DNA of 64,000 bases, taken from assembly GCA_000091205.1 (NCBI GenBank), contig AP006493.2; one strand, 5' to 3'. The translations under genes were made by a program, and so were the position numbers. The stretch's first letter is position 1; every line of letters starts with the position of its first letter. The notes below the pieces were generated by a model. The model saw nothing but the letters and a program-made list of their open reading frames with translations. It did not search any database and was not told the origin of the DNA. The stretch is from Cyanidioschyzon merolae. Its lineage: Eukaryota. Positions 1-40,580 of this stretch are shown piece after piece.

Positions 1-1289
1 TTGACCGATGGTATCGGTATGTACCTGCACGCTTGCGCGGGCTGAAGGCTTCACTTTGCGAGTACGAGTGCTCTGCAGCCTCCAGGTTATCGCACAGTCT
101 CCAGCAGATGCGCTTGGCATATGCAGGAATCTGGACGATTCAGTTTCTGGATGATTTACAGAAAAGCGAGGCACATTGAATACCCTTGTCGGAATAAGAC
201 GGTACTGGGGTGTCGGACACCGGCGAATAAGGTCAGTTTTTGGTCTCTTCCAATGATCAGAAGCATCAGCCTCTGCGGACTTTTTCTGGGAGTTCGTTCC
301 TTGAACACTCGCTGCTCTCCGAATTGGAATGCACTGGCGTCTCCTGTCTCTCTCGCTTCGTTTTCAGCATTCGAAGGATATTGATGACAGCGTTCTAGTT
401 CCGATTTCACAACCTTGAGCTGTCGTTGACGTATTTCCTGTACATACAAAACCTGCGATCCGCGGTTCGCCCGCCATTCTCATCTTGAGTGAACACCGGC
501 TCGGTGCGCCCATTGCAGCGGTGACACTTGGACATGCTCAGGAACGAGTAAATGTCGATCGGGCCTGCTCGTGCTCCCCATCGAGGCTTCACCCAGTGGC
601 GCTTGAAGACTTGCTTAATGGCTCGGTACATGTACTTAAACAGCGCAGATGGGTCAACTGGATGCCCTCTTCCGTTGCAGCGCCCATGCACGCTCTGCGG
701 TCGCGGGCATCTACTGGGCGATCTCGTCGGTGCAGACGCTGTCTGCTGCACAAATACATGTACGCTGTTCGATTCGATAAAGAATTTGTGGCACGAGATG
801 TTGCCCGTGATGAAATAAGTACCGGAAAAGCACCATCCCGGCTTGAGAACAAGTCGAGATGACTCGATTCCTCTATGTAGTCTTCGGGCAAATCGGTGAC
901 CCACGCTCTACTCGACGCGATCACTTCGATGAATCAAGTCCGAGCCCACGACCCGTTTTTCACACAAGCGGAAGCCGTATGAGCCTCGGTATGCATAAGT
1001 TTTGTGGGATATGATGCTTCTGTTGGATTCCGTCTCGTCCATGGTGACAATCGTATGAGGATTTGTGGTTCGAACGGAGTCGCTTATTTGGTATGCCAAG
1101 TCCCGGTACGGTTCGGCATCAGCTTATGAACAATCATCATGCGACGACGTAGAGTACCTTTATCGTCATTCAACGGCGCCACTGGTGTTGCCCGCGATTT
1201 GCCTTCAAACAGAAAGACAGATAAAAGAGAATGAGTGAAGTGAGTGTGTTACATGAAAGGAACTAACAAAACCGGAGAAATGTACATAT

Positions 1290-1575
1290 GATTTGGATAG
1301 TCGCATAGTTTATTTTACAAAGCCTCTCTTCAGGGACGTCACGAATCCTCTTGATTCCGGTGACGAGAAGAGTTTCGAGCAGCAATGCGTTGAAGGTGCC
1401 ACCCGAAAAAGCGACCTTGAATCATAGAACGACACATACATCCGTTATGCCTTTTTGCTGTAACTAGAATGTAAAGGATCCACATCTTAAGAGACGGTCG
1501 ACGAAAACTCGAGAGGCTGGAACAGAGTGCGCACTTATGGATTCCGTTTCAATCTGAAGCGGGTGCAGAGGCTCC
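1290..1575 (+). repeat. Dispersed about 300-bp repeat element, copy A
   Basis: Collinear blocks shared with 33812-34095: tgtacatatga; gtcacgaatcctcttgattccggtgacgag (hairpin); gtgccacccgaaaaagcgacc; ttcaatctgaagcgggtgcagag. Confidence 0.7.
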
Positions 1576-1881: not shown

Positions 1882-3549
1882 TCAGAGACCAAGCGCCTGA
1901 TTCTGTGCTTTGCTGCAGCCGACAATGTAAAACAGAAGAATCGACCCAAAGACAACACAAAGAATGAAACCAATAAAAGCCAACAGGGCCGCTTGAATTC
2001 CGCTGTTACACTGCTCCTGCAGCGCATCCGCTAAAATGTTCAGGACGGGTCCACAGGCTCGCCACTGCTCCAGAATTTGCGTTCCGTTGCTCAACATGTC
2101 AAGAATGTGTTCGCCCTCAGTCAGAACGCCGTGGAGGAGCGTCGCGCGGAACCCTCCGGTGGATTCAAAGTCCTGAATAACTTGTTTGTAATTCTGCAGT
2201 GTGATGTTGTGATGCAGCAGCGGCTCCAGCGCAGTTGAGACTTTGTCCAGATCTCTCTGTTGTTCATCCAAGACATGCGTGAGGCTGGTTACAGCAGGAC
2301 AGTAGATCAAATGGTCTAGCGAGTGAGACGATATGTGATCGGGACCACCAGTTTCCCCATGAATGTTCTCACCGCGAAGCAACTGTACCTGGCGTGCACT
2401 CGCGGCCGAGCAGAGGTCCCCATTGAGCACACCGTAGACAACAGAGGCGCCCAGACCTACCCAAGAAAGCGCTGCAAACAAGACTGGAGCCAGGAGCGTG
2501 ATTCGCAGGAACCATTTCGTCCACCGAGACCTTCTCTGATTCAGTGTAACCGGGTCATCCGAATGGACTCGTGCGGTTTCCACGGAAGCGCTCCGGATCG
2601 CAAAACGGTTTGACAAGTAGAATGCCGCAGCAGTCAAGAAAGCCAACACCAAAAGCACAATCGCACAGGCCAACATCAAACCGAAGTGGATCGATTCTGC
2701 GAGATTCACCGATCCCAAGCCACTGTCGAGACTGTTCAGAACGTTCGCCACGTCGCGGTAGATGCTCCTCGCCTGAGCTGGTATATCGCTAAAGTTCAGC
2801 CCCGAAAGCGAACTCGAGCTCACCACCGACTCCAAACTCGTCACCAGGCTCTGAAGCTCCCCCGAAGCGTTCGTGTAGAGGGAGACAACGGCACGGCCCT
2901 CGAGGCGTACCGCGTGGGATCCCCCGCGCACCACACCGAGCGTATCGTCCAGGGTCTGGTGAGAGACGATCACACCTGCAAGAGCAACGGCAGCTGCACC
3001 TGCCATGAGCACGAGTCCGATCGTTGCGCTCACCGGGTACACGGCGCACAGCGGCGGAGGGAGAAACCGACAACCGTTAGAAGCTGGAGGAGCTGTCTCC
3101 GCTGCCACCGTTGATATTTCCTCGTCTAGTACAGGTGCTGATGGTTCTGTACTCGTGTCTTCCTCAGAAAAAAGATCGGGACTTTTCTCATCGGACGCTA
3201 CCTTTTTCGCGTAGAAGAAGGTTGCGGGCTCGGGAGCGGAGACCAGCGGACGAGGCCGTCGTCGAGGTAAGCAGAGCAACACACGCCAAGGGACACAAAC
3301 GAAGACTACACCAACAATAAGGAAAAATAGCGCAACAGCCAAATAAGGTATCGCAGTATACCCAATCCCAGCAAAGTATCCTACGGTTACCTGAAAGTCG
3401 TTACTCGCACCGATGATGCGTGGGTACTCGTGAAAAAAGGACACCAGACTTGCGTCCGTCGGTGTTGCGTTACCAGGTGTCGATGCACGTATGACACTAT
3501 CCATGAAGCTCACCAACGCAAAACAAAAACAATAGAGTTGTCGACTCAC
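1882..3549 (-). CDS. Multi-pass membrane protein of unknown function. About 5 predicted hydrophobic helices, with large loops between helix 2 and 3 and between helix 4 and 5, which is a Tweety-like topology.
   Basis: Uninterrupted 555-aa ORF. Hydrophobic segments near residues 55-85, 170-195, 295-320, 345-375 and 520-545. No recognisable catalytic motif. Confidence 0.5.
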   Translation of the reverse strand: MSRQLYCFCFALVSFMDSVIRASTPGNATPTDASLVSFFHEYPRIIGASNDFQVTVGYFAGIGYTAIPYLAVALFFLIVGVVFVCVPWRVLLCLPRRRPRPLVSAPEPATFFYAKKVASDEKSPDLFSEEDTSTEPSAPVLDEEISTVAAETAPPASNGCRFLPPPLCAVYPVSATIGLVLMAGAAAVALAGVIVSHQTLDDTLGVVRGGSHAVRLEGRAVVSLYTNASGELQSLVTSLESVVSSSSLSGLNFSDIPAQARSIYRDVANVLNSLDSGLGSVNLAESIHFGLMLACAIVLLVLAFLTAAAFYLSNRFAIRSASVETARVHSDDPVTLNQRRSRWTKWFLRITLLAPVLFAALSWVGLGASVVYGVLNGDLCSAASARQVQLLRGENIHGETGGPDHISSHSLDHLIYCPAVTSLTHVLDEQQRDLDKVSTALEPLLHHNITLQNYKQVIQDFESTGGFRATLLHGVLTEGEHILDMLSNGTQILEQWRACGPVLNILADALQEQCNSGIQAALLAFIGFILCVVFGSILLFYIVGCSKAQNQALGL

Positions 3550-6474
3550 CCAGGCGCTGGCCTTATCTCCCCAGAATCAAACACGACTCGGGACAGCAAA
3601 CAAGATCTCGTGTCGCGGGAGAAATGCCGGCGGCACAGCGCCCGATTCGGCAGCTGCAGCGGCGGCCGCCTGTGACGTGTCGGCCGGCACGCCCCCCGCA
3701 CGGATGCTGCTCGGGGCGTTGCACACAGGCCACGCTCGGATACACGTGCGTGGCTTGGTATCGGGGAAGGGGTGCTCGTTCCTCGACAGGTATGTCTGTG
3801 TCGTGATTCATCCAGAGCAAAGTTGTCCTCGGGAACGGAGGTTATGAAAAGCAGCGAACAGTCGGCTGCCCGCTATCCGTAGATCGCTGCAGTGTGAAGC
3901 GCCTCGTCTCCCTGATGGTACAGCGTGCGTGGGTACCGAGCCTTCTGTGCAGAATGAGCAATTCAGCTTGACTCGTGGTGGAGTCACGTTGCATCTGCGG
4001 AATGGTACTTTATGGTCGAGAATCGCTCGATCCGAGCGCATATCGTACCCGCATGATTTCGTGAACGCTGCCAGATGACTGCAATGGTGCGGTGTCGGTG
4101 TCGGTGCGGCACCTGCTGCTGGCGACCGCTTCCAAATGTACGCTGTGCGCGGGATTTTTTTAACGTATGTGCTTCGTATACCAGTCGATGATGGCGGTGC
4201 TTTGGCTTTGAATTGGACAGCCATTGCTGGTATATTTCTGTCGGAATCGTGGACACAGACTGGCCATCCGTCGATTCCAGCGGGGGTTTCCGTGGCGCGC
4301 CCGCTAGACCCGTGTCAGATGCATACGGAACCCTGAACTGCTTGTGCGGTTCTGGGCTTTCAATTTGGTTCCGAATTTTTGATGGACGTACGGCGTCGGC
4401 ATTCCAAGTGCAGTGAGAAGCGCATACGGATGCATGTGAGGTTTTAGGGTCGGCGCTCGTGTTTCCGGGGTGTCTGGTTCGACGCTCCGCCGCTGGAGTT
4501 CATCACGCTAATGGAATCACGATGATTCACAAGGTCATCGAACAGGAGTTTGTAACATTACCGGTACCGCGATCCCATTCATAGGTAAAAGCTTCTACTT
4601 GTCACTGTTCTTTACGAGCAGCATGCTCAAAGAATACATTTTTCCAGTTTTCCAATTTTCCGGTGCATGGCAGCTCGTGGGCGCGGCAATCGGCGTCGCT
4701 GGATCGTCCAGGGACAAGAGCTCTCTGTCGTATCATAAGAACATTTTCATATGCACATGCAGCACGGTTATTGAGCTTGTCACGTCAAATGCTCGATGCC
4801 GCTCAAGAGACGAACCTGCATGCTTTTCTCGGCCATCGACGACAGAGCATTCCACAGTATCATTACATCTCTGGCGGCGTACGCTCCGAGAGCCTCCCGC
4901 TTCTTCTTTTCGCATGGCAAAGTGCCTTGGACCTGCTCTTGGGTCATCGCAGCGATCGCTGGCAGCGGAGCGTACGTTAACGCCTCGCACGAAGCAACTG
5001 TAAACGGTTCGAAGTTTCCAGACTTGATGGCCGACCTGGGTTTTCCTCTCGGTACTTGTTTCATCACCGACAACACAGCGTTCCACAAATATTCTATCGA
5101 ACCGAGCAGCGTGCGCTTGCGCGTGGAGCGGACAGCGTACTCGCGGAGCGGCGTGCCACAAGAAGCCCGTGATCGGAGGACACGGCACCGGGCGCCGTAA
5201 AGGAAGCGGTTATCGAGGCGAGCCTTCGGTATCCGTTCATGGCATGAAGCGAGCGACCCTGCAAGCGTTCACGCGCCCTAGAACGGTTCTCGGAACAGGA
5301 GCAGGAGCAGGCGAGTTCGACCGACGGGTACGCCCAACGACAGGCACGTGTTACCATTGCGACCGGCGCACCGAGGCTACATACGAGCAACATGAAAATA
5401 GCAAGCGAGCTGTACATCGCTACGCGCACCTGTACATGAACTGCGTCGTGAACAGCTGGTCGCAGCTGTCTGGAATTGAACGCTGCCATCAACATCCATT
5501 GACTGCTAACAATAGAGCTCGAGCGAAAGGAGAGCCAGGTGTGTGTCAAGCTGGAGATAAGAGGGAAGCGGCGGAAGCAGTCCCAGAAAAAGTCCGCAAA
5601 GGCTGGTTTTCGTTGTTCTGGGAAGAATTTGCGATGCTCGAGCGCGTACGCCCGAGCAAGACACCTCGACCCATCCATGGTGTTCTGAAACGGTCAGTGC
5701 TAATAGCTGGTGCGCTTTGCAATCTTTGATTGCTGCGTATGCAAACCATACATTTAGTGACGCACACTCACATGTCAGGAAATGCCATGCGCCCATCGCA
5801 CTCACAGCACCAGAGAAGTTGTGTGCGCTGAGACTCGCAAAGTCGCCCAGCATGATGGCATCCATCTCTATCTGTGTATCCATCCTTGTCTAGCTGAGCT
5901 GCACTCCAGAGCGTCCAGAATACATCAACTTCCTGGTGTTTTTCCGGACTTGTGTAACCTGAAAGGAATGCTCCAGCTGTTCATATAGACACGATTTCGC
6001 CGGAAAACGCCTCCAGGGAACACGCCGTAGAAAACAGCGCGGCGTTCGCTCAACTGCGAATAGCCCGCTCGCTGGCAAAGCACAGCACTGGCAATGACTA
6101 GTTGCAATCGCTGGCGTTGTCGCGCTCGAGCGATTTCCTCGTGACCCGAAGAACCCAAGTTTACTCGACAGGGGACTTGAACCGAGCCATAAGGCAATCG
6201 CTCTCTTGGGGTCCTGCAACCACCGGTTGCGGGAGAGTCTTCAACGTTTGTCTGGGCCTGTTTTCCTCGAGTAGAAGATTATTTCCCGCAAGCAGTGCAG
6301 TATACGGAAATCGTCGACCAACCGCCTCTAGCAAGCCCGACCACTGTTCCAAAGACGAGGTCAGCGCAAACACCGGCTGCGATGACCCACGGGTTTTGCG
6401 CTGAACCTGGCTGCTGCACTCCGTCGTGAGACGATCGCGTTGTAAACACCCGAGTTGAACCAGGTCATGAGCGC

Positions 6475-8052
6475 TCATTCGTTGAGCAAGTACCGTAACT
6501 GGTCGTCAAGCAACTCGCTACGGGATGTATGAGAACCAATGGGCAACTTTTCCGAGACTTGGACGTTGGGTCGCAGGGTCACCGGTGTTATGAGTGCGTC
6601 GTAGTACGCTGGCGAGGTCGCTGTCGTGTCACCGGGCTGGCTTTCGGTGTTGGCGCTCTCCGCTTTCGTGAGCAGTAGACTCGGAGCTCGTGAAGAACCT
6701 ACTTCGCGGACAGCGTCCCGCGAGGTACCCGTCTGCTGCTCGGCAAATTTCAGGTTTGCATACTTATCGAGAAGAGAGCACTCCTCCTCGCTAAGCACAT
6801 TGCGCAATGCGTCAAACCTGGCTGGAGATGCCGTCTGCTCTGGAAAGAGCACCGATTTGATATCGCTCAGGACTGGAGATGTGAGCTCGGCACCGATCGC
6901 ATTTTCATGCGACAAAAACGAGTCAGGTGAGGATCGTAGAAAGGCCACCTCAATACGGTGTTCAATATCGGTTTCATAGGGCGGCAATTCGACGTCTTGA
7001 TGGAGTCGAGCTGTCGTCTCAGCACCGGATGCAAGCAGCGGCTGCGCGAGCGCCTCTGATCCCAGCGCACTAAACGATGTGCTCGTGGAGGAGCGCTCAC
7101 CGCTTCGTCTGCGCTTGAGTTCTGGCCTGGAACAGGTCGTTCGAACATCATGGATGTGCAAATTTCCCGAAAACGACCGCGGTAAGGATTCGATCCCGCG
7201 GGGTGAGGTCACTGCGGCTGCGTCCTCATCGGGTACCGGAATCGCCAAAGCGGCAGGGCGTACGTCTGGGAGCTTTTCTCGTCGTTTCGACGGATTTTGC
7301 TTACTGATTTCCTCAGTGATACGCGCGCGTTCTTGCCGAAGTCGTTCTTTCTTCAGGGCTTCTGTTTGCTGGCGCTTTTGGTACTCCAGCCTCCTCAGGT
7401 AACTATTGAACCTATTTTTGACAGCATTATCTGTTCGACCGGGAAACTCTTTCGCAATGACCGACCAGCGGTTTCCATAGATCGCTTGTAATTGCACGAG
7501 ACGCATTTCCTCGTTGCGCGTCCACTCGGTTTTGACGATTCCCGGAGCCAAGTTGTTGATATACCGTTCGCGACATTGTTTCCCGGAGCGATTGACCATG
7601 TACTGCGCAATTCGTGGCCAAGCACCGACGCCAAGCATATTCACCAGGGCCTTGAGCCTCTCATCTTCACATGGTTGCCACGGTCCGCGTCCATTCACAC
7701 TGGGTGGTATTTGCGGTAGTTTGGACTCGTCCACGTAGTCCAGTTGTGTTGACGCCGTAGGTCGCGTCGCCCGACGACAGCTCGTCTGTCCGTATTGACC
7801 GGTGTCGAGCGCGGCACTCGTTACCGTCGGTGAGCGGTTCGCCGACTTGCTCGGACGTTCCGAGTCAGCGTTGAACACGCTGCCTGCTTGCCTGCTGGAC
7901 GCTGCACGCATCGCTGAAGAGGTAGGCGTTGCGGAGTCGACGGTCGGCGGGCCGCCGAGCACGCGGTCGTCCGAAGGTAGACAGGTCCGCTGTTCAGAAG
8001 AGAACTCGCTTTGTGCCTGGTTCCTCGTCCGAGCCATACCCAGCTTCTCCAC
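6475..8052 (-). CDS. R2R3-type MYB DNA-binding transcription factor
   Basis: Two tandem Myb/SANT repeats with regularly spaced Trp (RGPWQPCEDERLKALV...GAWPRIAQYM..RSGKQCRERYINNL; KTEWTRNEEMRLVQLQAIYGNRWSVIAKEFPGRTDNAVKNRFNS). Long Ser/Pro-rich N- and C-terminal regions typical of transcription factors. Confidence 0.8.
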   Translation of the reverse strand: MEKLGMARTRNQAQSEFSSEQRTCLPSDDRVLGGPPTVDSATPTSSAMRAASSRQAGSVFNADSERPSKSANRSPTVTSAALDTGQYGQTSCRRATRPTASTQLDYVDESKLPQIPPSVNGRGPWQPCEDERLKALVNMLGVGAWPRIAQYMVNRSGKQCRERYINNLAPGIVKTEWTRNEEMRLVQLQAIYGNRWSVIAKEFPGRTDNAVKNRFNSYLRRLEYQKRQQTEALKKERLRQERARITEEISKQNPSKRREKLPDVRPAALAIPVPDEDAAAVTSPRGIESLPRSFSGNLHIHDVRTTCSRPELKRRRSGERSSTSTSFSALGSEALAQPLLASGAETTARLHQDVELPPYETDIEHRIEVAFLRSSPDSFLSHENAIGAELTSPVLSDIKSVLFPEQTASPARFDALRNVLSEEECSLLDKYANLKFAEQQTGTSRDAVREVGSSRAPSLLLTKAESANTESQPGDTTATSPAYYDALITPVTLRPNVQVSEKLPIGSHTSRSELLDDQLRYLLNE

Positions 8053-12809: not shown

Positions 12810-15167
12810 TCAGTCCCGCTCGTCGTTCTCGTCCAAATATTTTTCGAGCACCTTTTCTTCGACCTCAAGGACTTGTTCGACCCATTCTTCGAGGACTTCG
12901 TCGTCACCGGGAGCAGCGCCTTCCGCATCCGCTGCGAGCGCATCGGTGATATGGCGCTCGCCCCCGGGGATATGCTTCCATAGCGCTGCACGTTTTTCTG
13001 TCTCCGCTCGATACCGCGCACGGTTGCGTTCCACAAGTTTCTGCCATTCCGCGAGCGCGTCCCGGCGGGCAACTCGAATGTCACGACGTCGATGGGCGCG
13101 CATCGCTGTATCCTCGGCTTCGTACTTGGCACGGTACTGTTTCAGATTCTTGCGTACTTCCCGCTCCTCCTGCTCAGATAGGAACCACTTGGCGGGGCGC
13201 GGGCGCCAGGAAAACTCAAAAAGGTTCTCCATAAAATGGGGCGCACCAAGTTTCCGCCCGTAAAACGTCCAGAGTTGATATCCATGCTCAATACGGGAAG
13301 CGCTCGCATTCACCCAGGTGCACACGAAGCGGCCACTCGGATCCCAGCAGATGTCGGAGCAGGCAAAGTGTTCATCAACGCCCATGAGCTCATGGTCGGC
13401 AACATTCCACCACTCGAGGACGCCTCCCATGCTGCCGAGGCCTGCCAGCAGAACATGCCCCATACCTGTCGGTGACCAGCAGATTCGATTGCACTGCTTC
13501 CGTTCGAGCCTGAACAGGGTCCGTACGGTATCCTTCTGGACCTCGTAGAAAGTCACCATGGGGCGCGTCGAGCCGCTTGCCAGGCCCATGGCACCGGCAA
13601 CGCCTCCAGCAGCGGTTCCGAGCCCGCCCAATGGCGTCGTCGTCGTTGCTGCTGCTGCTGCTGCTGCTGCTGTATTCGGTGGCAAATGTTGCTGATGCAG
13701 AATCGCGAATCGGTCGCTTTTGGGTTCCCACGCAAACGCTAGTACCTTATCGCGTTCGGAGAACTCAAGCGTCTCCACTGGTACGTCTTTTTCATTCACA
13801 CGGAATATTTCAAAGTTTGTGAATCGACCTTTTCTGCTGCGTGTATACCGCTCGACTCTGCAGGCGAGGTACTTGCCCTGCGGGTGCCAGATGAGTTCGA
13901 TATTCGCGACCGAGTACAGGGCTTTCTGTCGCAGTTCGCGGCGGCTTGGCATCTCCAGCAGCAAGACGCGTGCGGGCGACTGGCCCTCCTCGGGCGTCCA
14001 GATGGCCAGGAGGTTCGGCGTGGTGGGTGACCACGCAAACCCGAGCGCAGCCGGAACGCTCACCGGACGATGATCGAGTAGCTCAATCCGATCAGGCAAC
14101 ATCTCAAACACGTGAATGCAGTCCTCTCCGAGTCGCGCCATCATTGTCTCGTCAGCGGAGAACTGCACGAGGGGCCACGGGAAGCGCCCAATATCTGGAG
14201 GCGGCATCCCACGTTCCCGTTCTGTTTCCATACGCTTCCACTCCGCGGACTGCATGGACGCGAGCATTGGGTTCGCTGCATCCGCTCGTGCCCGTTCCTC
14301 AAGAACATCGCTCCAGAGACGCTCCAAGAGGCGCGGCGGCAGACGCAGGGGCGACTCGAAAACCTTTAGGCGGCGACCAGTGCCGGTTTCCCACACGACC
14401 AAGGGCTCTGGCGAGTCCGGGGCATTAAACGTAACTAGATACCGCTCGTTTCCAGAGAAATGTATCAGACGGGGTTGTGGATGCTCGAAGCGTACGATCT
14501 TCTGGAACTCGCTGCCGCCCCAGAGGGCAATGCCCTGCCGATGAAAAGTCGCCAAATAGAGGCCCTGCGGAGACCAGGCTACGTCAGACTCTGTCCAGTT
14601 TGCTCGCTCGTGCTCAAGTTCCGGAGGCAACAGTGGGTCAACCCAGTACACGGCAGTGTCGACGCCCGTGCAGACGACGAACTGATCGCGCCCGCGTGGA
14701 TCCGCCAAGTGTGATAGCAAGTTCGGCCGAGTTTCCATGTGTCGCGCGGTCTCGTCACTCAGCTCCGCAAGCAGCTCTGCTGGTGGCTCAAAAGAAGCAT
14801 CCGGAGGCAGCTGACGCAACCGCTCCACATCGCTAAGAAGACTCACTTGAAAGCGGTGCGCTTTATCGAGCTGAAAACCGTCCGTCTGCTTCCGAGCCCG
14901 CTCTGCCTCTTCTGCAGTAGCATATTCCACGATCCCATAACCCCCGGTCGGCGGAATTTCAAGATACTTGATCACACCCAACGGGGAAAAGATCTTTTGA
15001 ATCACGTTCACGAGTTTCGCGTGTTTGCTTTCCGGGATCACGGGAACGTTTTCGACGACAAGCGTTGAAGCCAGGGCGTCATTGACCGCTCTGTCTACGA
15101 GCGCTTGCTTTGCATTAACTTTGGATGTTTTCCAGGTATCCGCGCCTGATGAAGCAGCGCGCGTCAT
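12810..15167 (-). CDS. EIF3B: Eukaryotic translation initiation factor 3 subunit b (eIF3b/PRT1)
   Basis: N-terminal RRM (VVENVPVIP...GYGIVEYATAEEAERA...DGFQLDKAHRFQV) followed by the WD40 propeller (WTESDVAWSPQGLYLATFHRQGIALWGG..F..RFEHP...YLVTF; VTNFEIFRVNEK; FAWEP). Basic/acidic C-terminal tail. Collinear with known eIF3b over the full 785 aa. Carries a poly-Ala/Thr insertion. Confidence 0.9.
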   Translation of the reverse strand: MTRAASSGADTWKTSKVNAKQALVDRAVNDALASTLVVENVPVIPESKHAKLVNVIQKIFSPLGVIKYLEIPPTGGYGIVEYATAEEAERARKQTDGFQLDKAHRFQVSLLSDVERLRQLPPDASFEPPAELLAELSDETARHMETRPNLLSHLADPRGRDQFVVCTGVDTAVYWVDPLLPPELEHERANWTESDVAWSPQGLYLATFHRQGIALWGGSEFQKIVRFEHPQPRLIHFSGNERYLVTFNAPDSPEPLVVWETGTGRRLKVFESPLRLPPRLLERLWSDVLEERARADAANPMLASMQSAEWKRMETERERGMPPPDIGRFPWPLVQFSADETMMARLGEDCIHVFEMLPDRIELLDHRPVSVPAALGFAWSPTTPNLLAIWTPEEGQSPARVLLLEMPSRRELRQKALYSVANIELIWHPQGKYLACRVERYTRSRKGRFTNFEIFRVNEKDVPVETLEFSERDKVLAFAWEPKSDRFAILHQQHLPPNTAAAAAAAATTTTPLGGLGTAAGGVAGAMGLASGSTRPMVTFYEVQKDTVRTLFRLERKQCNRICWSPTGMGHVLLAGLGSMGGVLEWWNVADHELMGVDEHFACSDICWDPSGRFVCTWVNASASRIEHGYQLWTFYGRKLGAPHFMENLFEFSWRPRPAKWFLSEQEEREVRKNLKQYRAKYEAEDTAMRAHRRRDIRVARRDALAEWQKLVERNRARYRAETEKRAALWKHIPGGERHITDALAADAEGAAPGDDEVLEEWVEQVLEVEEKVLEKYLDENDERD
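13635..13672. repeat. (GCT/GTC)n coding trinucleotide repeat inside eIF3b (poly-Ala/Thr on the coding strand)
   Basis: gtcgtcgtcgttgctgctgctgctgctgctgctgctg. Confidence 0.9.
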
Positions 15168-18100
15168 GGCCTAACCCCAGCAACGAACACGGTGTCTTCG
15201 TAGGCGGCGGGGGTTCGTAGAGGCCCTGCGAGCACGAAAACCTCGACCTGCACGACTGCAGCGTCTGACGTCCGCGCGCGCGCGCGGCGACGGCATCGCG
15301 TGGCTAGCAAGTCGCCGAGGACGATGGTATCGAACACCTCGACACCTTCCAGGTATGAGGTCCAGCGAAACGGATACGCACACGGGCACAGTGCGCTTTC
15401 TGCAGTTACCCACTATGGTGGGTGTCAAGCACAAACCCGCATTGCCAGCCGAAAACAACGCATTCCATGCATGATCACGAAGGAGAGAGGCGGCTCCCAG
15501 GATATATCCTAACAGCCACGTTTCTCCAGCGTGTCGTGCAGCGAAGACAAGCCTGCATCCGCAGACTCGCTGAGCACATACCGACGACGAGACCCAATTC
15601 TACGTCGGATGAAGCACACCTCAAGCCGACGCCCTCTGTGTGGCACTGCAACGCCGTTCTAGCTCGATGAACTATCTGCTCTAGCATGTAAGGTGCAAAG
15701 GCGAATACGGAACTGCAGGTACTAGGCACACTCGATAGGACGTATGAAACGACCAGAATATCCGAGATGAAGTATAGGTAATGTAACTTGGAGGTAGGAT
15801 GTTTGATGGATACTTTACTGTGCACTGAAAAAATAACGCAAAAAAGTAAGAAAAGAATAAAGCGCACAATCGGAGAACGCTGACACAGGTAAACGTTTTT
15901 TCAATGGAGCAAAATCGAACACCTCGAGACAGACGGTTGCACCTGCGAAGACGTGTCAGCAGACACGGAGATTGTCGACGTTATTTTCTGTGTGGGTTGG
16001 TGCTGCTCACGTTCAAGACAGGTGCGATGACTTGGAACCGTGACTGGCTCTGTTCGGGGCATCCGACGGCTGCCGAGTCTACGGTGAACACGCTTAGCCA
16101 GCTGCCAGTGGCGATTACCGGGTACGTAGGCGCGGCGTGGGCGGGCCGGGTGCCTCTGCCTCGGGGCTCTGATCGGACACCGTGGATACTTCGCACAGGT
16201 GGACAGTAACCTGCATATGTAGGCAACGTGAGTCGCTTAGTGGTGTATGTGGTCCGGTCGCTTGCACTCTTGGCTTGTTCATTCGGCGCTACATCGCGGA
16301 AACGTTCGACCGTGGATGCCAGGCCTTGCGTCGTGATTCGCATTGAGCGACCTGATTCGGGCTGACCAGTGACCGAGACGCCGTACCGGAACGGCTGATT
16401 TTACAGTCAGGATGGAAATCGCAAGGTGTCTTGACCTGAGCTTTCGAGTTACGGGGCGTCGAGGCCTTTTTAAGCGGAGTCAAACACATCCTGTGCATGA
16501 GGTAGCGGATTCATAGGCCACACTGTGGATCGGGTCACTGATATGCAATGGTATCGAATCAGGGAACACGATTTTCACCCTCGTATAGAGCAGGAGAATC
16601 GTTTCCGGTCTATACATGCGGCGATGCAGCCTTGCTGGATTCCCGCCTGGACCAATCTTGTGCCTCGCTCCAGCTCGGGAAGCAATGCCTGCTCTCTCCT
16701 GGCCACGGATGATGTTCTTCGTCGACTATCTTCAGCGTTTGAGCACAATCTCCATACGGTGCTCCCAACGAGTTGCAGGATTGTTTGCTCGACACAAAGC
16801 CGATGGATACTCCGGGCGCACGCCACACCTCCAGATATTGATTGATTGTGCTCAGGTAGCAGTGCAGAAACCGCTTACTCGCGTGCTCGCTGATGGAATC
16901 GCAATATAACTGACATTCGATCAGCTTCAAGTACAAGAATCTCTTGTAGCCCGACTCTGGTTTACGCGCTTCTCCTCTCTAACGGATTACGCGCGCATTC
17001 GTGCTCATCATGTGTGTATGTCGTGCGAGACGCATTGATAGGCTTGCAAGCAATCGATTCCTGCGCGCACTCAACGCTGTCGCCGAAGAGACAGGAGTGC
17101 AGTCCTTTCGCGCTCCAGCACGTCCGGTGCTGTGGGCCTGCACCTAACAACGGGACGTTTCGCTTATGTCGCCTTCCGACTCCGTGCTCAGGTTGGTGGA
17201 TGCAGGCCTCTGGCCTCTGGACGCCCGAAACCTTTGCCGACCCCCATGTGGTCTCTTACGGTCCTGCCCGAGGTCGTGCGCGTGAGCGATCTCCACGTTC
17301 ATGGGCGCTGTGCGTGAAGCGTAGAATCCCCTCCATCAGTCTCCATTTTTCGGGCTAGATACATGAGGGTACAACGCGTATAACGCACCCAGGGAGCTTG
17401 TCATGTAGCGCTCGATATTGACCCGCACATAGGTTTGGAGTATGTTTGGATGCATTTTAGCAGATGCGCTGTCGATTTTTTCGAAGCTTACGTTGTGCAG
17501 CGGCGTATCAAGGTAGCCCAGGAAGCACATGTGCGAATCTCTGATCCTACTTTTCGACCGTATTCGCCTCCTGTCCCGATTATCAGTTATTTCGCCGCAC
17601 GAAGGTTTGATCAAAACAAAATTTCAGAGGAATCTGGACAACTGGCAGCGCAGCGTCTGAAACTCCAGTGAACAATTGTTCGACGAGGTGCATCACGTCG
17701 AGGCAATCTAGACGAACCTTCTTCGAGTACCAAGCTACGTGTTCCTTCATGGTGTTCGAAGTCGCTCGTTTTGGAAGCTTCTCCCCGGTGACGTGTTCGT
17801 GTTCCGGAGTGATGCTCATGTCAGGCAAATTTCCCTTCCTGTCATTCGTTGTCCTCTTCTCTGGATTCTCTTGCTCTGTTTTGTCTGGTGGTTTCTTCTC
17901 CCTCTCCTTGCTCGCCTTCTATTCTACTAGGCGGCGTGGCATAGACGTGGTCGATTGACTCCACACGCGCTTTTTTTTTCTGGGCTCAGACGTGCTGAAT
18001 GACCGCTGAGCCCGAAGATCGCTTTTGGATGGATGTATGCATGCATGCAGCTGCCATTTCTGAAGTAAATTTTCTTCAGCTTTTCCGTCGCGAGCGCTCC

Positions 18101-20015
18101 TGCCTTCTATATATCGTGCACGAGCAGAGGAGCAATACGAAAGCTCAGGGCTGATGGAGGCTGGAAACGACTCGTCGGATAGCGGTATCACGGATGCATG
18201 CGACTTGGACGTGGATTCGTGAGCGTTGCAATGAAGTTGGGCGAGAGATAAAACGCCTTCGACTCGATTGACACTGGACAAATACACTTGCACGAAGAGC
18301 ACCTCAACGCCGATCTCAACTGCGTGCTCTTTCACCGATTTCGGATGATCCAAATCAACGTTGTCTAACTGCGAAGGAGAAGCCGCCGAGTGTGCTTCGA
18401 CGAAGAATGGAGTGGTGCAGGATCCTGTGCCTTTGGCGGCTCGAAGGCGACCGCACGATAGCATCGTCGCTAGAGCGCATACCATTGGCATGCTCGGTTG
18501 TCTCTCCTGAGCGGACGCCGGTTTGCCGCTCTTCGAGTACCCATACACAGGTTTACTGTATCTCCCGAATCATCGCTCGTCAAGTGAGACAAATGCCTCT
18601 GTACCATTTGTCGTACGCGTTCACGTTTCAGTGCGAACTCGATGCTCCATGTTGCCCAGCATGCGACTGACTAAAATTGAGGCACGCTTGTTTCATCGTC
18701 TATTCTGTGTGTATTTATCAACGTGCGTACCAAAGAATCGGAAATTTCATATCGTCGAGCGTCTGGGGTAGTATTTCTGGGATATCCCACCGGATGGAGC
18801 ACATTGACGACGACGCTTTCGTACAGATAGAGTCTGATGTGTTCTCCTTTGAATACATGGCGTTCAGGGTACGGACGACGAGAAGCGTGATTCACGTGCT
18901 TGCGACCCATGGAGTGACCGACTAGGACAAGGTAGCTCGTGCATCTCTGGCGATTATTTACAGCATAAAGTCTTTTCGAGACCTATCTTATATCTATAGG
19001 ATACAGTTCCGTTCTTAAATGCATGCACGACTATGAAGCAAAAAAAGGCATGGTGGTATCCGTGTTCCGGAATGCAGTGCACGGCGTAGAACCGCAGTTT
19101 CCTCCTTTTTCGTTTTTGCAATCGAAGAACGCCCCATCATTTCACCGGCAAGTTCCGTGCTCTGCAGCATTCCCTGCCGAGCTCTGTATGCGATGCCCGA
19201 ACCTCATGGTTAGCACTTCGAATGCACAAGTGCAGCGCCATGCCAAACCTAGGCAACCGGCCAGGCATGCACTGCCTCGCGCCAGCTGCATGCGTCCATC
19301 GCCCGGCACCTTCTACCTTCCAGGTGGAAAGTTCCGCGATCCGCATGAAAAATCCGACCCACTTTTTCGTACGCCTCTTCACGAGACGTTGCGGAGCAGG
19401 TGCTAGCGTCACGAAACGGGGACGAGTTTCACATATGGTAGCAAAGGCGAGACTCGGTCCCTGGGGTGCTCGCCAACGACCAAGCTTCTCCAACGCGTCG
19501 TAACGCGAACACAGACCTCGGCAAGCAGACTCTCTATACTCAAATCAAAGACGATGCGTCCCGAACCCGACTCGGTTGACCCATACCTCGATTCGACGCC
19601 CGCAGTAGTATACCAGAGCCGCTCTGCTTCCGTGCTGCGTCCGCAGCGGCACCGCTAGAGACGCAGTTGCGGACGCTCAAGACAAGCTCTGCGTACTCAG
19701 GTACCTATACAGTGGCCAGTGCGTCCGACGAGACGGACTAGCAACGGATTCTGGAGTCGGGATATGGGATGTTGGACGCTCTCCCGACCGTTGATATCAA
19801 GTGCCTATGCGCGGATACCTGCTCTTTCTACGAAAATGCGCTGAAAAAATCGCGACGCGCCCTGACTAGAACGTCGTCGGCTGAACGCCCATTGCCGGTG
19901 AAGTGCGGAATCCTGCTACTGCTACTACTGCTTCTGGACACAGTGTTCGTGCTGGTGTCAGGCTGCGTGGGGACGCAAAAGCACGCTGCAGACGGTACTA
20001 TTCGTCTCTTGGTCA

Positions 20016-31030: not shown

Positions 31031-32468
31031 TTCGGTGAAGCGTCTGCCAGCTTGAGGTGTTTGGCTCTCTTACACCGTGCGCTTACGCTGATCGAACCAA
31101 CTTGGTACCTTAAGCACGTCGTAAATCGTCAACCAGCTGCCAACACGTGTACTCTTGGCGGCCTTGTACCGGCGTCGCTGGAGCCGCACCGCCCCAGGAG
31201 TAGAACGCTTGTCCTGGTTATGCCAGTGCCAACTGCTCCTAATGGTGTGTGCTCCACAGCGTACTCGTGACAAATAGCAGTCACCAGTAGAATGTCATGC
31301 CATTATAAAAACAACGCTAGGCACAAGAACGAGCCTTATTGTCATTTTGGCGACTACAGCACCGAAGCGGGAAACCTTCCCGACACCTTCAATACGTCGA
31401 GCAGTAGGAAGTGCAGGAACGAGTCCAGCGCTCACGCCTTCATTCATCGGGGGATAAAATGGAACAGGTCCAGCAGCTCGGTTGTGGGCGTCCATGTTCA
31501 GGGGTCGCTTTGTATTCTCATCATCACCAGACTCGGCAGGCTCTTTTTGCGACTGATTCACGCTCTTCTCTAGTGTAGCCTTTCAGCTCGGTTTGGTTTC
31601 ATCCACGTTGGAGAGTAAAGCAGGAGATCGAAATCACGATGCAATATTCCGTATAGATCGTAGACGGATTGTCTGTAGGATATATATTCTCTAGTGAACA
31701 GTGAAAGGAGAACCGCAATCATCATCCTTTAGCTCTGCCATGCCACGGTGCTAAGATAGTTGAGGAACACTGGATGAACGAAGTACATGCGTTCTGCGCC
31801 AAAAACCGATATTGTGAATGACTGCTGTTGTTCAATGGTGGATAACGATCCGCTGATCACCACACGGAAAGCAAAAGTGAAGATAACAGCCACCAGGGGC
31901 GTGCCTGTTTCTCAACAGCTTGTTCGTGTGGTCCTGAAAACACTGGGATACAGTCGCAAAAAAGGGTCCTGGTTCATACACAGCCAGCTTCCATGGGAAT
32001 CGAAACTACTACAGGTTTCCTGCGACTCAGTGATCGGCATGAAGCAGGGGAACCTTGGTTTGTTTTCCCAGTGGATGAGACTTGCTTCAGGTAAAATGGT
32101 CGAAGCGTATACAGGTATTCGTGCAGACAGAACCCGTTGTGTGTACGATCGAGCTCGTAGAGAACGGGGACATGATCATACGTTCTACCTAAAGTGCATG
32201 CACTTGGCGACGTCAGTTTCGCTCGTAGACAAGGCTCATACAACAGCAGCAACCACTTTGTTGAACCATTGACAACTTTTTCCCTGACGTCCGGCGACGC
32301 CCTTCTATTAGACAACGTGACATTTCACGATGCCCTTCGCTTTGTCTTTCTTCCGCAAGACCTTCTCGCTCGGGGAACGCCATCACCTATGGGCTTGAAG
32401 CGGTGCATTCATTTTCAAAAATAAGAAATCTAATATTTGAGCTAGGGTGTAAACTTTAGAAGGTCGAG

Positions 32469-32876
32469 ATGGAGAAAAGCCAGCAAAGCGCTCCAGCAAT
32501 AGAAAAGCACGGAGGACTGACAGAGCAGCAAATTGCGCAGAGGGCGCGAGTTCTAATAATACATAAAATAGTCAGTTCCACCAGAGGCGACAAACGCATG
32601 AAGTTCGTGAACCGATTCTACAACTCCACCATCAATTTCAGACAGTGTATGGCGTTGAAGACGAGGCCCGAGGAGAAGAGGCGGTCTAACTTTGTAGGGC
32701 AGTGTCTCAGACTCGAAGTGCGTCCGGACAAACTGAAACTGGTTGTATGCGGAAGGCCAAAAAAAGACTGGGAGGCCTGTGCACCTGGGTATCAATGTAC
32801 CCTATATGGTCGTGGGTTATTTTTCGTTCCATTAATCACATTTTACATACCTCAGGCTGTACATACTCCGATCTAA
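32469..32876 (+). CDS. Small hypothetical ORF, member of a two-copy paralogous pair (see 60323..60607)
   Basis: Shares the peptide block C-M/A-L-K-T-R-P-E-E-x-x-R-S-N-F-x-G-Q-x-L-R-L with the ORF at 60.3 kb. About 75% nucleotide identity over roughly 150 bp. Confidence 0.3.
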   Translation: MEKSQQSAPAIEKHGGLTEQQIAQRARVLIIHKIVSSTRGDKRMKFVNRFYNSTINFRQCMALKTRPEEKRRSNFVGQCLRLEVRPDKLKLVVCGRPKKDWEACAPGYQCTLYGRGLFFVPLITFYIPQAVHTPI

Positions 32877-33811
32877 TCTGCTTCTCCAGCTCCGTTTTCA
32901 GCAGTCGATGGATGCTGATGACCGTTTTTAAGTCCCGGTGTCGCTGCTCCAGACTATGGTCTATGCATTTGATGAGTCGGCGAAAGCTGCGATCTACGCT
33001 TCGCCTGGCACACTCATCTTCATCGTACACAGCCTCGGTTCGCCCTTTCCAGCGATGCCACTCGGCTGTGATGAGGTATTGGCGTACGCATCCGCAACGC
33101 CTCCTCCTCCGAGCGCCGCCCCGTCGCACGTGAACACTTGCTTCGTCGCCCGATCAACGCCCCCTGACGGAGAGAAAAGACTTCCTGAAGTGTCCGTCTC
33201 CGTTGGCACGCTCGATGGCTTCCGTACCACGCGCGGGCTTCCTTCAGACGACGCCCTCGGCGACTACTTTATCCGTTGAACACGCGCAAGCACGAGCTTT
33301 TCCATTCCATAGAGGTTTTTTTGTGTCACGCAATATTTCCCATGACAGAACACCGCAAGGAAAATCTCGGACGGAGAGCCAGGCGTGGAATTTTGGATCT
33401 GTCCGCCTTCCTTGGTACGAAGCGGTGACACACGCTTCTCGGGAAGCGATAGCTGCGGTGGCTGAAGTCAAAGTCTACGACCCTTTCTTCCTCGCAAACG
33501 GAAGAGATGGGAGCCTCTGGGAGCATATGCCGTAGGTGGATTCACACTGCTGTCGAATGCAGTTTTGTCCGTAGCCATAGATAAGGACGATTTGTCTGGC
33601 AAACCGAATCCAGTGCGATGCGTGAGAATTTGACTGAGCTTTCGGCATGAGCTTGTAACCAAGTCGTCACTGGTCGACGTCGAGCTTTTCATGCGGAATC
33701 TCGCTACGCGAAACGCCGCGCCAACGAGTTTCTTTTGAAGCAGAACGATTGAAAACTTGCAGAATACGTGTTTTCAACATGTTACACTTATGACAGGGAG
33801 AAGCGTGGAGG

Positions 33812-34095
33812 CTTGTACATATGAATCGGTTGATGACCCAGGTTTTTTACGAGCCCTGGTTCGAAGGCGTCGCCAATCATCCTGATTCCGGTGACCTTAC
33901 CAATTTCAGAAGCAAAGCGGTGATGGAGCCACTCCAAAAACACAACCGAGAACGCTAGAACAACGTACGAATTCGCAGTTTCATTGCTGGTCTACTTTGA
34001 ATGTCGAAGATGAGCTTCTAAAAAAATTTGGAAAGGCAAGAATAGAGCCAGCAATTCAGCATTCGATTTTAAACTGAAGCGGGTGTAGAGCGCGC
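33812..34095 (+). repeat. Dispersed about 300-bp repeat element, copy B
   Basis: tgtacatatga; cgccaatcatcctgattccggtgacc; gagccactccaaaaacacaacc; tttaaactgaagcgggtgtagag, with the same order and spacing as copy A. Confidence 0.7.
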
Positions 34096-34723: not shown

Positions 34724-35923
34724 TCAAGATTTCTTGAATGCCTGGCCATAGTCCATCTTGGGTTCGAGTTTCTTGTTCTCCGATAGTTTGCGCACGGCTT
34801 TCATAAAGTCGTCCATCACAACATAGTCACGCTCTTCCCGTATCGCAAACATGCCAGCCTCAGTGCAGATATTCCGGAGATCTGCACCATTGAATCCATC
34901 TGCCAGACGGCAAACAGCCTCGTAATCGACGTCGCCACGAATGTTTAGCGAGCGCGCGTGAATACGCAAGATCTCAAGGCGTCCCTGTTCGTTCGGCAGT
35001 GGTACCTCTATCTTACGGTCGAGTCGTCCAGGCCGGAGCAGCGCCTCGTCGAGCACATCTGGACGGTTGGTGGCCATCACCAGCTTCACTGCCGCGAGTT
35101 CATCAAAACCGTCCATTTGCGCAAGCAGCTCCATCAGTGTACGCTGGATTTCCCGGTCCGCAGAAGTGCCTTCACTGAAACGTTTCCCGCCAATCGCATC
35201 GATCTCGTCCATGAAAATGATGCACGGTTGATGATCCCGTGCGAATGCGAACATCTCCCGAATGACTCGCGCGGATTCCCCGATGTACTTATCGACGATG
35301 GCTGACGCGACAACCTTCAGAAAGTAGGCATCCATGTTCGAGGCGATCGCTCGAGCTAAGAGCGTCTTACCGGTACCAGGCGGGCCGTACAAAAGGACGC
35401 CTTTGGGCGGTTTGATCCCGACCCTGATGAAGAGTTCTGGGTTCGTCAGCGGTAACTCCACCGCCTCACGCAGCTCCCGAATCTGTTCACTGAGTCCGCC
35501 GATTTCCGAATAGTCTATTCGCTGCCGTGTTTCTGCATCAGCAAGCATTTTATGGACCAGAGGATCCACTTCCCGTGGAAGAATGCGCATAATCGTGAGC
35601 GTCGTCATATCGAGCGCCACCCGCGTGCCTTTCTTCAGTCGCCGTCGCGGTAAACGTGCTTTGCAGCCGACCACGTAGCGCGGCCCTGAAGACGCTTTTA
35701 CGATAAACTTCTCCTCGGTGAGAGGCCGTAGTACTTCGCCCACGATCTGGCCGACGGACTGAAGTGCTCGCAGGTCTTCTTCGGTTTTCTCGAATTTCGC
35801 TCTGACCTGCCGCAGCGTTTCTCGGTGCCCGCGAATTTTCTCGGACAGTTGTTCATGCTGCTGGAACACCCGTCGGTACTCCTGAAGAGCGGCCTGTCTG
35901 CGAGGATCCTCCCCGGTCGACAT
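34724..35923 (-). CDS. PSMC6: 26S proteasome regulatory subunit 10B (Rpt4/PSMC6), AAA ATPase
   Basis: N-terminal coiled coil. Walker A (GPPGTGKT), Walker B (IIFMDEID), SRH ([27 protein letters not shown]). Full-length 399-aa collinear match to Rpt4 orthologues ([26 protein letters not shown]). Confidence 0.9.
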
Positions 35924-39516: not shown

Positions 39517-39831
39517 GTACTGCAAGTATGGTCAAGCCTCCAGGTTGCCGCGTTCAGACTCGTCGCAGCGCTGGAACCAGAGCCCAGCGGCAGCTGTAGA
39601 GGCTCACCCCAGGTACCGTCAAACCTATAATTTGCCGCGTACAGACCAGATGAAGAAATGCTGTTTCGGACGTGTGCACGACATGTTTACAAGGCACGTT
39701 CGAATCGATGCCACATTGCCGATATGTTTTGGAGCATTGATGCCATTTGCACCCATGTCAGAACAGAATAGAATAGAACGAGTCCAGTCAGGGAACGCGG
39801 GAGAGCATATTCAAGTGGGAATCCCTTCCAA

Positions 39832-40191
39832 TTGCTCTCAACGCGAGCCTTTGGGGGCGTTTTCGTCAACTGCTTACGTTTCCTCTCTATGATCGCTGAC
39901 TTTAACGACGTCGGCTTCCGCTTTCCGTCCGACTCTGTTGTCCGCATCCGAAGGACGTTCATGGCAGCGTTCAAGTGCCCGATTTCGACGCTGCCGGCTG
40001 TTGTCTACGCATTTCGTGCACAGGCAAACGTTGCGATCTACGCGTCGCTTGCCATACTGTTCGTTTTGGTGTACAGTCTGGGTGCGGCCTCCGCGGCGGC
40101 GAAAAGTGGATATGGTCAGGTATGCCCGAAGGTCCACCACGCCTCCGTATCCGAAGGCCGCTCTGTGGCGCGACAAACGCTTGCTTTATGA
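39832..40191 (+). CDS. Duplicated small ORF (119 aa, one predicted TM helix) present intact in both inverted-repeat arms (mirror copy 45380..45739 on the minus strand); coding status uncertain
   Basis: Both copies keep the reading frame and differ by 3 amino-acid substitutions (G/A, A/V, I/M). Hydrophobic segment NVAIYASLAILFVLVYSLGAASAAA. Confidence 0.25.
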   Translation: MLSTRAFGGVFVNCLRFLSMIADFNDVGFRFPSDSVVRIRRTFMAAFKCPISTLPAVVYAFRAQANVAIYASLAILFVLVYSLGAASAAAKSGYGQVCPKVHHASVSEGRSVARQTLAL

Positions 40192-40580
40192 CTTGGTACG
40201 AGCCCTTACGGGGTAACGGGGGCTTCCGCGTCTGCCATTCTCTGATTCCGCACCTGGTGTTGTACGCTACGTTTGCGAGCCTCTTCTGGGTCGCGATCCG
40301 AGGCGACTAGTCGGTCCGCTGCACGCGCGGGCGCGCGCTGCTGCATTTGTTGTAGGTTTAGAGATGGCGATGTTGTCCATGAGGAATCATATACCGTCAG
40401 GAAAATCTGGGCTAGAGAATCGGTCGAGAAGTCTGGATCCGCGTACGCTCACTTCATGTAGAGCCGAGAAGTACGCTACAATGGAATCCATCACTGTGAT
40501 GATCGAAGACTGAACTGAAGACTCGTTACGATGGAAACGGTATAGACGGGAGCCTTTGGGAGCATATTCCCTGAGAGGTA

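Follow-up and report, generated by a model that had tools for sequence, protein, structure and literature searches.

The conserved segment at positions 1290-1575 (copy A) and its counterpart at 33812-34095 (copy B) very probably represent the 5' ends of a decayed, non-autonomous transposon of the Tc1/mariner-IS630 type, about 1.38 kb long, which carries a Fanzor1 remnant and would have arisen by internal deletion. We refer to this element as R1, and to the whole 64,000-nucleotide stretch of Cyanidioschyzon merolae DNA that was analysed as the window. An earlier note had read the two segments as a novel family of about 300 bp built around a conserved hairpin. Its view of a dispersed repeat family of mobile-element origin, non-coding today, was borne out. 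The proposed novelty was not, as a Tc1/mariner-IS630-type element with a Fanzor1 gene is an architecture already described (PMC3627910).

Three genes of the window encode proteins identical to those of C. merolae 10D chromosome 11, namely eIF3B (12810-15167), the 26S proteasome subunit Rpt4 (34724-35923) and CMK301C (46853-49411), and the region was found again in several environmental metagenomes at more than 99% identity. The blocks shared by A and B are real, collinear and located where they had been reported, with tgtacatatga at 1281-1291 and 33814-33824, the imperfect hairpin at 1338-1364 and 33869-33895, and ctgaagcgggtg at 1554-1565 and 34074-34085. Within the 300 bp, the two best pieces of the BLASTN comparison reached E=1e-7 and E=8e-4, far beyond chance. 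Over the full extent of the homology these values became E=5e-44 (1242 bp) for A and B, and E=2e-73 (1337 bp) for A and an opposite-strand copy, D, that had been overlooked. Sensitive BLASTN indeed aligned positions 246-1571 of copy A collinearly with B, with D and with both arms, C and C', of an inverted repeat. BLASTN and nhmmer thus delineated a dispersed repeat of about 1.38 kb, of which the window contains five (A, D, B, C and C'; about 1.34-1.43 kb each). The nhmmer profile, built from four copies, recovered exactly these five full-length matches and none besides. The supposed 300-bp unit is only the terminal fifth (about 285 bp) of this repeat.

The complete decayed copy A occupies 183-1565 on the minus strand, as defined by its nhmmer profile match (240-1578), by end alignments and by BLASTN to D, B and C. 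Copy D (4307-5697, plus strand) contains a transposase remnant (4386-4730), a Fanzor remnant (5053-5384) and a decayed version of the hairpin block (4507-4533, plus strand). Copy B, whose left boundary is approximate, spans 32715-34085 on the minus strand and includes the segment originally described, with the hairpin at 33869-33895 and the Fanzor remnant at 32815-33081. Copy C (39750-41170, minus strand; hairpin 40960-40984, Fanzor remnant 39979-40254) accounts for nearly all of the left arm (39747-41174) of the inverted repeat, and copy C' (44407-45821, plus strand; hairpin 44593-44617, Fanzor remnant 45317-45592) corresponds to the right arm (44403-45824). The arms are 98.8% identical. The degenerate third hairpin that had been noticed in the arms is therefore present, at 40960-40984 and 44593-44617, but it is not isolated, each 1.43-kb arm being a whole R1 copy. 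As previously remarked, the copies sit downstream of genes.

Outside the window, R1 was found at at least 10 further loci (8 + 2) in C. merolae-like metagenomes. A scan with the hairpin-derived pattern GTCRCSAATCNTNNTGATTCCGGTG yielded 33 metagenome stretches, 32 of which contained full R1 copies, and clustering at 93% identity or more resolved them into the window copies and eight new loci. Two more loci (n1 and n2) were reached in Logan assemblies through ORFs from the protein search. Distinct copies share 52-62% pairwise identity in a star-like pattern without subgroups, and each is 70-76% identical to the consensus (about 27% diverged).

Aligning both ends in 12-13 copies placed the R1 termini at CACCCGTGTCAGATTAAAACGGAAC and ...TATTCTGACACGGGTG. 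They form terminal inverted repeats of about 20 nt, visible in most of 12 copies, with 15/16 of the first nucleotides and 19/20 of the first nucleotides identical between the two consensus ends; CACCCGTGTCAGATTA at one end matches CACCCGTGTCAGAATA at the other at 15/16 positions. In copy A, the 5' repeat lies at 1540-1565 (minus strand; family consensus CACCCGTGTCAGATTAAAACGGAAC, which contains the block ctgaagcgggtg) and the 3' repeat at 183-208 (minus strand), flanked by CA at 1566-1567 and TA at 181-182, respectively. Of 11 copies, 5-6 have TA directly outside one end and about 4 outside the other, and the copies without it are mostly one substitution away from it. As to the target-site duplication that had been suggested as a check, a TA or a one-substitution derivative flanks most copies and would represent a putative duplication. 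Judged on their sequence, these ends and flanks fit Tc1/mariner.

The coding capacity of R1 became visible in a consensus. That no ORF is conserved, as observed earlier, is true when only A and B are compared. A majority consensus built from 12 copies, however, restored long reading frames, which run on the complement of the strand that had been read; the sense strand of copy A is the minus strand, with its 5' end at 1565. Single copies gave little. Pfam searches found no match in the minus-strand ORFs of any individual window copy or in the plus-strand ORFs of R1 (the wrong strand), the latter matched only the same loci among 5.8 billion proteins, searches of PDB sequences returned no match, and pairs of copies showed translated similarity in all frames without codon periodicity.

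The first consensus frame, which starts with MYSLDIR and carries VAIDETAF..GYAPRGSR and CFIMDNIAFHKS, matched the Pfam family DDE_3 (PF13358) at E=1.8e-10 (41.3 bits, above the gathering score of 28.6). It also matched the NCBIfam model of IS630 transposases (NF033545) at E=3.9e-18, below the curated cut-off, and three helix-turn-helix families (HTH_33, HTH_Tnp_Tc3_2 and HTH_32) at E=6e-4 to 9e-3, all below their gathering scores. BLASTP aligned it with residues 1-252 of an intact 307-aa transposase, P0052 (E=6e-27), the two proteins being collinear from their N-termini and both starting with MYSLD. The first two catalytic motifs, AIDET and IMDN, are present. The third catalytic residue was not recovered and would have been lost at the deletion junction.

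Further downstream and in a different frame, the consensus reads QRALARAAD..VIVGYGTGRGNGGGHRGEP..VVDVREHLTTAKCHRC..CMKC..RNRDLNAAINIL, with a zinc-finger region of the form TTAKCHRC...CMKC...RDLNAAINIL. This piece matched OrfB_Zn_ribbon (PF07282) at E=8e-8 (32.7 bits, above the gathering score of 26.3) and the NCBIfam TnpB model NF040570 at E=1.4e-5, below the curated cut-off. It is 48% identical to residues 527-688 of a 704-aa protein, P0048 (E=2e-38), and carries the D...[TS][TS]xxC4...RD signature that defines TnpB/Fanzor (Bao & Jurka, PMC3627910). In copy A, the corresponding C-terminal remnant, with its glycine-rich loop, zinc ribbon and RD..NAA motif, lies at 350-685 (minus strand) and was detected by tblastn with residues 562-664 of P0048 (E=2e-13). 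Database Fanzor-like proteins matched all the window copies in the same way (2e-13 for A; 4e-10 to 1e-7 for D, B, C and C'), so that the assignment does not depend on the consensus alone. The transposase was assigned from the consensus, but tblastn with database proteins does reach individual copies. R1 retains only the C-terminal 165 or so residues; the RuvC-I aspartate and the N-terminal WED/REC region are absent, and 1.38 kb leaves no space for them. By its sequence, R1 thus contains a Fanzor fragment, not a Fanzor gene.

Searching the collection of 5.8 billion proteins with the stitched R1 consensus recovered both PF07282 proteins of 536-704 aa, 44-49% identical to the Fanzor piece, and DDE_3 transposases of about 307-317 aa. 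In one intact relative, a metagenome contig of 3,273 bp, the gene for a PF07282 protein of 636 aa comes after that of P0052 and has the same orientation. Its 3,273-bp contigs belong to ENA ERZ1426603 and ERZ1426850. The part missing from R1, estimated as about 55 transposase codons, a spacer and about 526 Fanzor codons, would amount to a deletion of about 1.84 kb, which together with the 1.38 kb of R1 gives about 3.2 kb. The layout of this relative and the agreement in size make an internal deletion in a mariner-type element with Fanzor1 the best reading of R1. The ancestor of about 3.2 kb would have consisted of an inverted repeat, a transposase gene (about 307 aa), a gene for the Fanzor1 RNA-guided nuclease (about 640-700 aa) and a second inverted repeat. 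Loss of about 1.8 kb would then have fused the last 165 or so Fanzor1 codons to the transposase gene, cut just past the second catalytic aspartate. The junction can be placed only approximately, since the two regions of homology overlap by about 50 nt in different frames.

Mapping copy A onto the sense consensus explained the composition of the segment first noticed. Positions 1290-1575 (minus strand) comprise the 5' terminal inverted repeat, a leader of about 80 nt and some 65 codons from the beginning of the transposase remnant. The block ctgaagcgggtg marks the outermost part of the 5' inverted repeat; g.gccac.c.aaaaa corresponds to the FGVAPST helix of the putative first helix-turn-helix, and tgtacatatga to codons 66-69. 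The hairpin block, an imperfect 27-nt palindrome (GTCGCGAATC-ATCCT-GATTC-CG-GTGAC) located at 1338-1364 on the minus strand of copy A, corresponds to codons 41-49 (HRNQDDSRR), directly upstream of the RRPRTRVRKIT linker, in a linker region that is not conserved in P0052. The four blocks would accordingly be the 5' inverted repeat, the first helix-turn-helix, a linker that happens to be palindromic and a short run of codons.

The substitutions in the copies follow a neutral pattern. In the recovered frame, identity of 12 copies to the consensus was 0.750, 0.743 and 0.742 at the three codon positions, and protein-level selection as the origin of the conserved blocks was rejected in the absence of third-position relaxation, with four copies and again with 12. 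Substitutions thus accumulated without selection at the protein level, as expected of a crippled derivative. Among six metagenome haplotypes, 1.82% of the sites of copy B were polymorphic, compared with 1.67-1.88% in the neighbouring intergenic DNA and 0.33% in the coding sequence of Rpt4. CpG hypermutability was also rejected as a cause of uneven decay (retention of 0.714 at CpG, 0.72-0.73 elsewhere). In Cyanidiococcus yangmingshanensis, the orthologous 21-kb locus has kept its gene order and contains no R1, indicating that the insertions are specific to the Cyanidioschyzon lineage. The element is absent at three orthologous sites, and the spacer between Rpt4 and the AAA gene measures 840 bp in C. 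yangmingshanensis and 3.7 kb in C. merolae. We infer that, once the C. merolae lineage had separated from Cyanidiococcus, the deleted element multiplied there through mobilisation in trans, possibly in a single burst, and that its copies then decayed neutrally to about 72-74% identity with the consensus. The nearly identical C/C' pair is at odds with a single ancient burst and needs a later duplication or concerted evolution.

Part of the repeats of C. merolae has been described before, and the alternative that retains most weight, although we hold it to be rather unlikely, is that the R1 copies are fragments or members of one of these families. Nozaki et al. (2007, PMC1955436) counted eight class II elements that resemble bacterial transposases, together with a 3.2-kb repeat, present in 253 copies, whose truncated ORF shows weak similarity to WSV486 of WSSV. 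Bao and Jurka (2013, PMC3627910) described Fanzor1-bearing repeats in C. merolae, the unclassified CMe-1A (about 150 copies, about 3 kb, no inverted repeats) and also TE-N2_CMe, and listed WSSV with one Fanzor1. Like R1, the families CMe-1A, TE-N2_CMe and the WSV486-like repeat are dispersed, old and equipped with a truncated Fanzor1-like ORF in the same genome. The truncated ORF that defines the WSV486-like repeat and the Fanzor1 of WSSV would fit the truncated Fanzor1-like ORF of R1, and the copies of CMe-1A, about 80% identical to their consensus, are diverged to a similar degree. As described, however, these families are about 3-3.2 kb long, unclassified and without inverted repeats. By contrast, R1 measures 1.38 kb, and 12 of its copies show inverted repeats and end sharply, a separation from CMe-1A that was drawn from its published description. 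A second family of the window, R2, also bears on this point. Its three copies of about 2.6 kb yield a consensus that contains, besides a Tc1-like remnant, a Fanzor1-like ORF differing from that of R1, the Fanzor pieces of R1 and R2 being only marginally similar (E=0.008), and on the description of CMe-1A it is a better candidate for that family than R1. Earlier counts of 'WSV repeats' or 'class II' elements may nevertheless include R1.

None of the published surveys of C. merolae repeats considered here (PMC1955436, PMC3627910 and a later EDTA annotation, which lists Mutator, Helitron, CACTA and unknown elements) reports a Tc1/mariner class, and we did not find R1, as a deleted mariner-Fanzor1 element with inverted repeats, in published accounts of these repeats. 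P-MITE records no MITEs in this alga (PMC3964958). The closest described relatives of R1 in architecture are the mariner elements with Fanzor1, PGv-1, PUl-1, PUl-4 and SPu-1 (Bao & Jurka 2013, PMC3627910), with which it shares an IS630-type transposase and a Fanzor1 on one element, short inverted repeats and TA flanks. R1 differs from them in keeping only residues 1-250 or so of the transposase and the last 165 or so of Fanzor, apparently fused by internal deletion, in that all of its copies are dead and about 27% diverged from the consensus, and in its host, a red alga from which PMC3627910 reports only CMe-1A, without inverted repeats.

The best matches of R1 to curated models were with bacterial families, IS630 (NF033545) and TnpB, the OrfB of IS605 (NF040570), in agreement with the remark of Nozaki et al. 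that the class II elements of C. merolae are most like bacterial transposases. R1 differs from the bacterial IS630 elements, which are not known to carry TnpB, by its location in a eukaryotic nuclear genome. Regarding its mode of origin, R1 can be compared with other non-autonomous DNA transposons. Internally deleted elements of this kind include Ds in the Ac/Ds system, deleted mariner and Tc1 copies, and the precursors of MITEs. With Ds-type elements R1 would share the retention of both ends, amplification in trans and subsequent neutral decay, although its chimeric remnant ORF spans two different genes; it is also longer than typical MITEs.

A second alternative concerns the palindrome alone. 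It may have become a functional cis-element in a subset of copies, selected after the death of the transposon while the remainder of each copy decayed, so that at least 12 loci would have kept it and the other copies would have lost it neutrally. Such an exapted palindrome could form an RNA or a DNA hairpin, or could be a putative site for a dimeric protein of host or transposon origin. All 20 fixed bases of GTCRCSAATCNTNNTGATTCCGGTG are intact at 12 loci (A, B, C, C' and eight from metagenomes), where a copy decaying neutrally would be expected to keep all of them with a frequency of about 0.725^20 = 0.0016 (about 0.16%). Elsewhere along their length these motif-bearing copies are only 70-76% identical to the consensus, with no CpG effect, and within the palindrome they differ at loop positions and at one G.U-compatible stem position. 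The palindrome is better kept than the inverted repeats, and two copies that lack the motif, D and c8, share a double change from C-G to T-A in one stem pair. In addition, GAATC-N5-GATTC occurs five times in the window where 0.1 would be expected, four of the five occurrences falling within R1 copies.

The copies that were found independently of the motif (D, c8, n1 and n2) tell against this exaptation. They have lost the palindrome at the neutral rate, with 17-21 of 27 bases left and hairpin energies of -0.8 to -4.9 kcal/mol. Conservation of the block across the four independent window copies did not exceed that of the best window after shuffling of the alignment columns (p=0.48). Covariation in the hairpin (12 copies) was not significant, 27-211 of 500 shuffles reaching the observed measures with a single double-changed pair. 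The 311-nt region around the palindrome has fold z-scores of -0.32 and -0.07 and no Rfam match; one of the 27 palindromic sites is polymorphic in the population, where copy B evolves like intergenic DNA; and the orientation relative to neighbouring genes is mixed (six tail-to-head, three divergent), so that a consistent gene orientation of the motif-bearing copies was rejected. Two other roles fared no better. An inner transposase-binding site of the IR/DR type was rejected because the agreement between palindrome and inverted repeat, 10-11 of 16 positions, is no better than shuffles give, and a general genomic motif because the palindrome is essentially confined to R1. A scan of viral contigs with the hairpin pattern gave only three chance matches. 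Altogether we regard an exapted palindrome as improbable. Pure neutral decay nevertheless leaves the exact retention of 20 bases at 12 loci unexplained. In a related scenario, the inverted R1 pairs A/D and C/C', each of which flanks a single host gene, may have been maintained for an effect on these genes, in which case concerted evolution might have kept C and C' alike.

The original interpretation as a SINE- or MITE-like element of about 300 bp or a small structured-RNA gene family is almost certainly wrong: the four collinear blocks with preserved spacing and the stable local hairpin (-8.0 to -9.1 kcal/mol) of A and B spoke for it, but the homology runs more than 1 kb past 300 bp in all R1 copies, which already refuted the proposed extent, the region corresponds to transposase codons in the R1 consensus, tRNA-like sequences and Rfam matches are both absent, and there is no excess folding energy. 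More precisely, Rfam gave no match in the whole window at the gathering score, nor in 100-1700 at E<=1; ARAGORN found no tRNA gene in the window; and folding of 1270-1580 on both strands showed no excess stability (z-scores of -0.32 and -0.07). An omega-RNA, such as accompanies Fanzor and TnpB, would be expected at the 3' end of R1; Rfam matched no family of this or any other kind. A SINE or other non-LTR element was rejected as R1 ends in inverted repeats without an A-rich or simple-repeat tail, no A-rich tail following the terminal blocks of A and B either. The MITE comparison was correct insofar as R1, too, is non-autonomous, belongs to the DNA transposons and has terminal inverted repeats flanked by TA, but the MITE class (less than about 800 bp, no coding remnant) does not accommodate an element of 1.38 kb with two gene remnants. 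Helitrons, with their 3' hairpin and CTRR end, do not fit the R1 ends, the hairpin being about 200 nt away from the end. The candidate novel structured RNA family can thus be removed from the list.

With A and B read as the 5' ends of a deleted Tc1/mariner-IS630 transposon, R1 counts as unremarkable debris of the genome, except for a short palindrome that is better preserved in many copies than chance would predict, and the value of the result lies in annotation. It provides a concrete class, with a Tc1/mariner-IS630 backbone, inverted repeats, TA flanks and a Fanzor1 passenger, for part of the poorly classified repeats of a model red alga. For the history of the host, R1 indicates that mariner elements with Fanzor1 reached Cyanidioschyzon when its lineage had already separated from that of Cyanidiococcus, and later died there.

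The inverted repeat formed by 39747-41174 and 44403-45824 was found to be 98.8% identical and to consist of two entire copies, C (39750-41170, minus strand) and C' (44407-45821, plus strand), of R1, the decayed Tc1/mariner-IS630-type transposon with a Fanzor1 remnant. These two copies enclose a 271-codon ORF (41886-42701). Between the two arms there were 11 substitutions, plus a 6-bp indel located inside an internal (TGGTGC)n run. Because the identity passes the tips of the terminal inverted repeats of R1 by 3-4 nt (TTG/TTGC), the arm sequences argue for an origin of the pair by duplication or gene conversion and not by transposition. Copies A (183-1565, minus strand) and D (4307-5697, plus strand) made up another inverted pair, with just ~59% identity between them, in which the 5' ends of both copies, those carrying the hairpin (an imperfect 27-nt palindrome), face a single gene at 1882-3549. 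This arrangement has the same geometry as that of C and C', a resemblance that could be due to chance, given the five R1 copies present. A fifth exact GAATC-N5-GATTC palindrome, the core pattern of the hairpin, was observed at 127-141, ~45 nt beyond the 3' end of copy A, and is the sole occurrence of this pattern in the window outside the R1 copies.

Upstream of copy B (32715-34085, minus strand), we recovered another transposase-like remnant on the plus strand, within 31787-32742. Its ORF 31787-32272 gave a weak HTH_Tnp_Tc3_2 match (E=0.015) and was matched in tblastn searches by both the R1 consensus and the database protein P0049. The segment 32539-32742 was also 68.6% identical to 60299-60500. 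These sequences may represent a third related family, placed tail-to-tail with B.

A second dispersed repeat of ~2.6 kb, R2, was present in three copies at 16312-18898, 55052-57448, and 61701-63944, the latter reaching the end of the window, with ~56-68% identity among them. The minus strand of the R2 consensus encodes a Tc1/IS630-like motif (LVSVDET.FG..YGYS) followed by a 346-codon ORF ending in VVAHGTG...IDEFRTTYTH...HRDFNASINIRRC. This ORF looks Fanzor1-like from its sequence, its match to PF07282 (the Fanzor1/TnpB C-terminal domain) having an E-value of 0.39 only. Judging from the published description, R2 is probably the CMe-1A or "WSV486 repeat" of C. merolae. A 185-bp direct repeat (62% identity; 15458-15639 and 19422-19606) lies on both sides of the first R2 copy.

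The orthologous locus of Cyanidiococcus yangmingshanensis (JANCYV010000010.1, 21132-42331) shares the gene order of the C. merolae window (CMK301C-like, a 248-aa gene, RNase HII, ubiquitin-like, Rpt4, AAA, TPR, desaturase, and proteasome subunit) with far shorter spacers, and R1 is absent from it. In one metagenome contig, an R1 copy was found in two parts (4294-5167 and 6701-7132), with ~1.5 kb of inserted sequence separating family position 891 from position 905. P0045, a 610-aa protein from JGI 3300031394 and further metagenomes, is of low complexity in its N-terminal two-thirds and Fanzor-like in its C-terminal third only, where GYGTGRGNGGGHKGEP differs by one residue from GYGTGRGNGGGHRGEP of R1. 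Its neighbors in several metagenomes are ordinary eukaryotic genes, with Rpb2 close by. A truncated insertion is one conceivable explanation for P0045, a domesticated fragment another. Finally, the contigs of ENA ERZ1426603 and ERZ1426850 (3273 and 2834 bp), the longer one as a whole about the size of one element, encode a 307-aa DDE_3 transposase, P0052, with the N-terminus MYSLD, as in the R1 consensus, and, 3' of it on the same strand, a 636-aa Fanzor-like PF07282 protein. Together, these two proteins apparently constitute an intact element.
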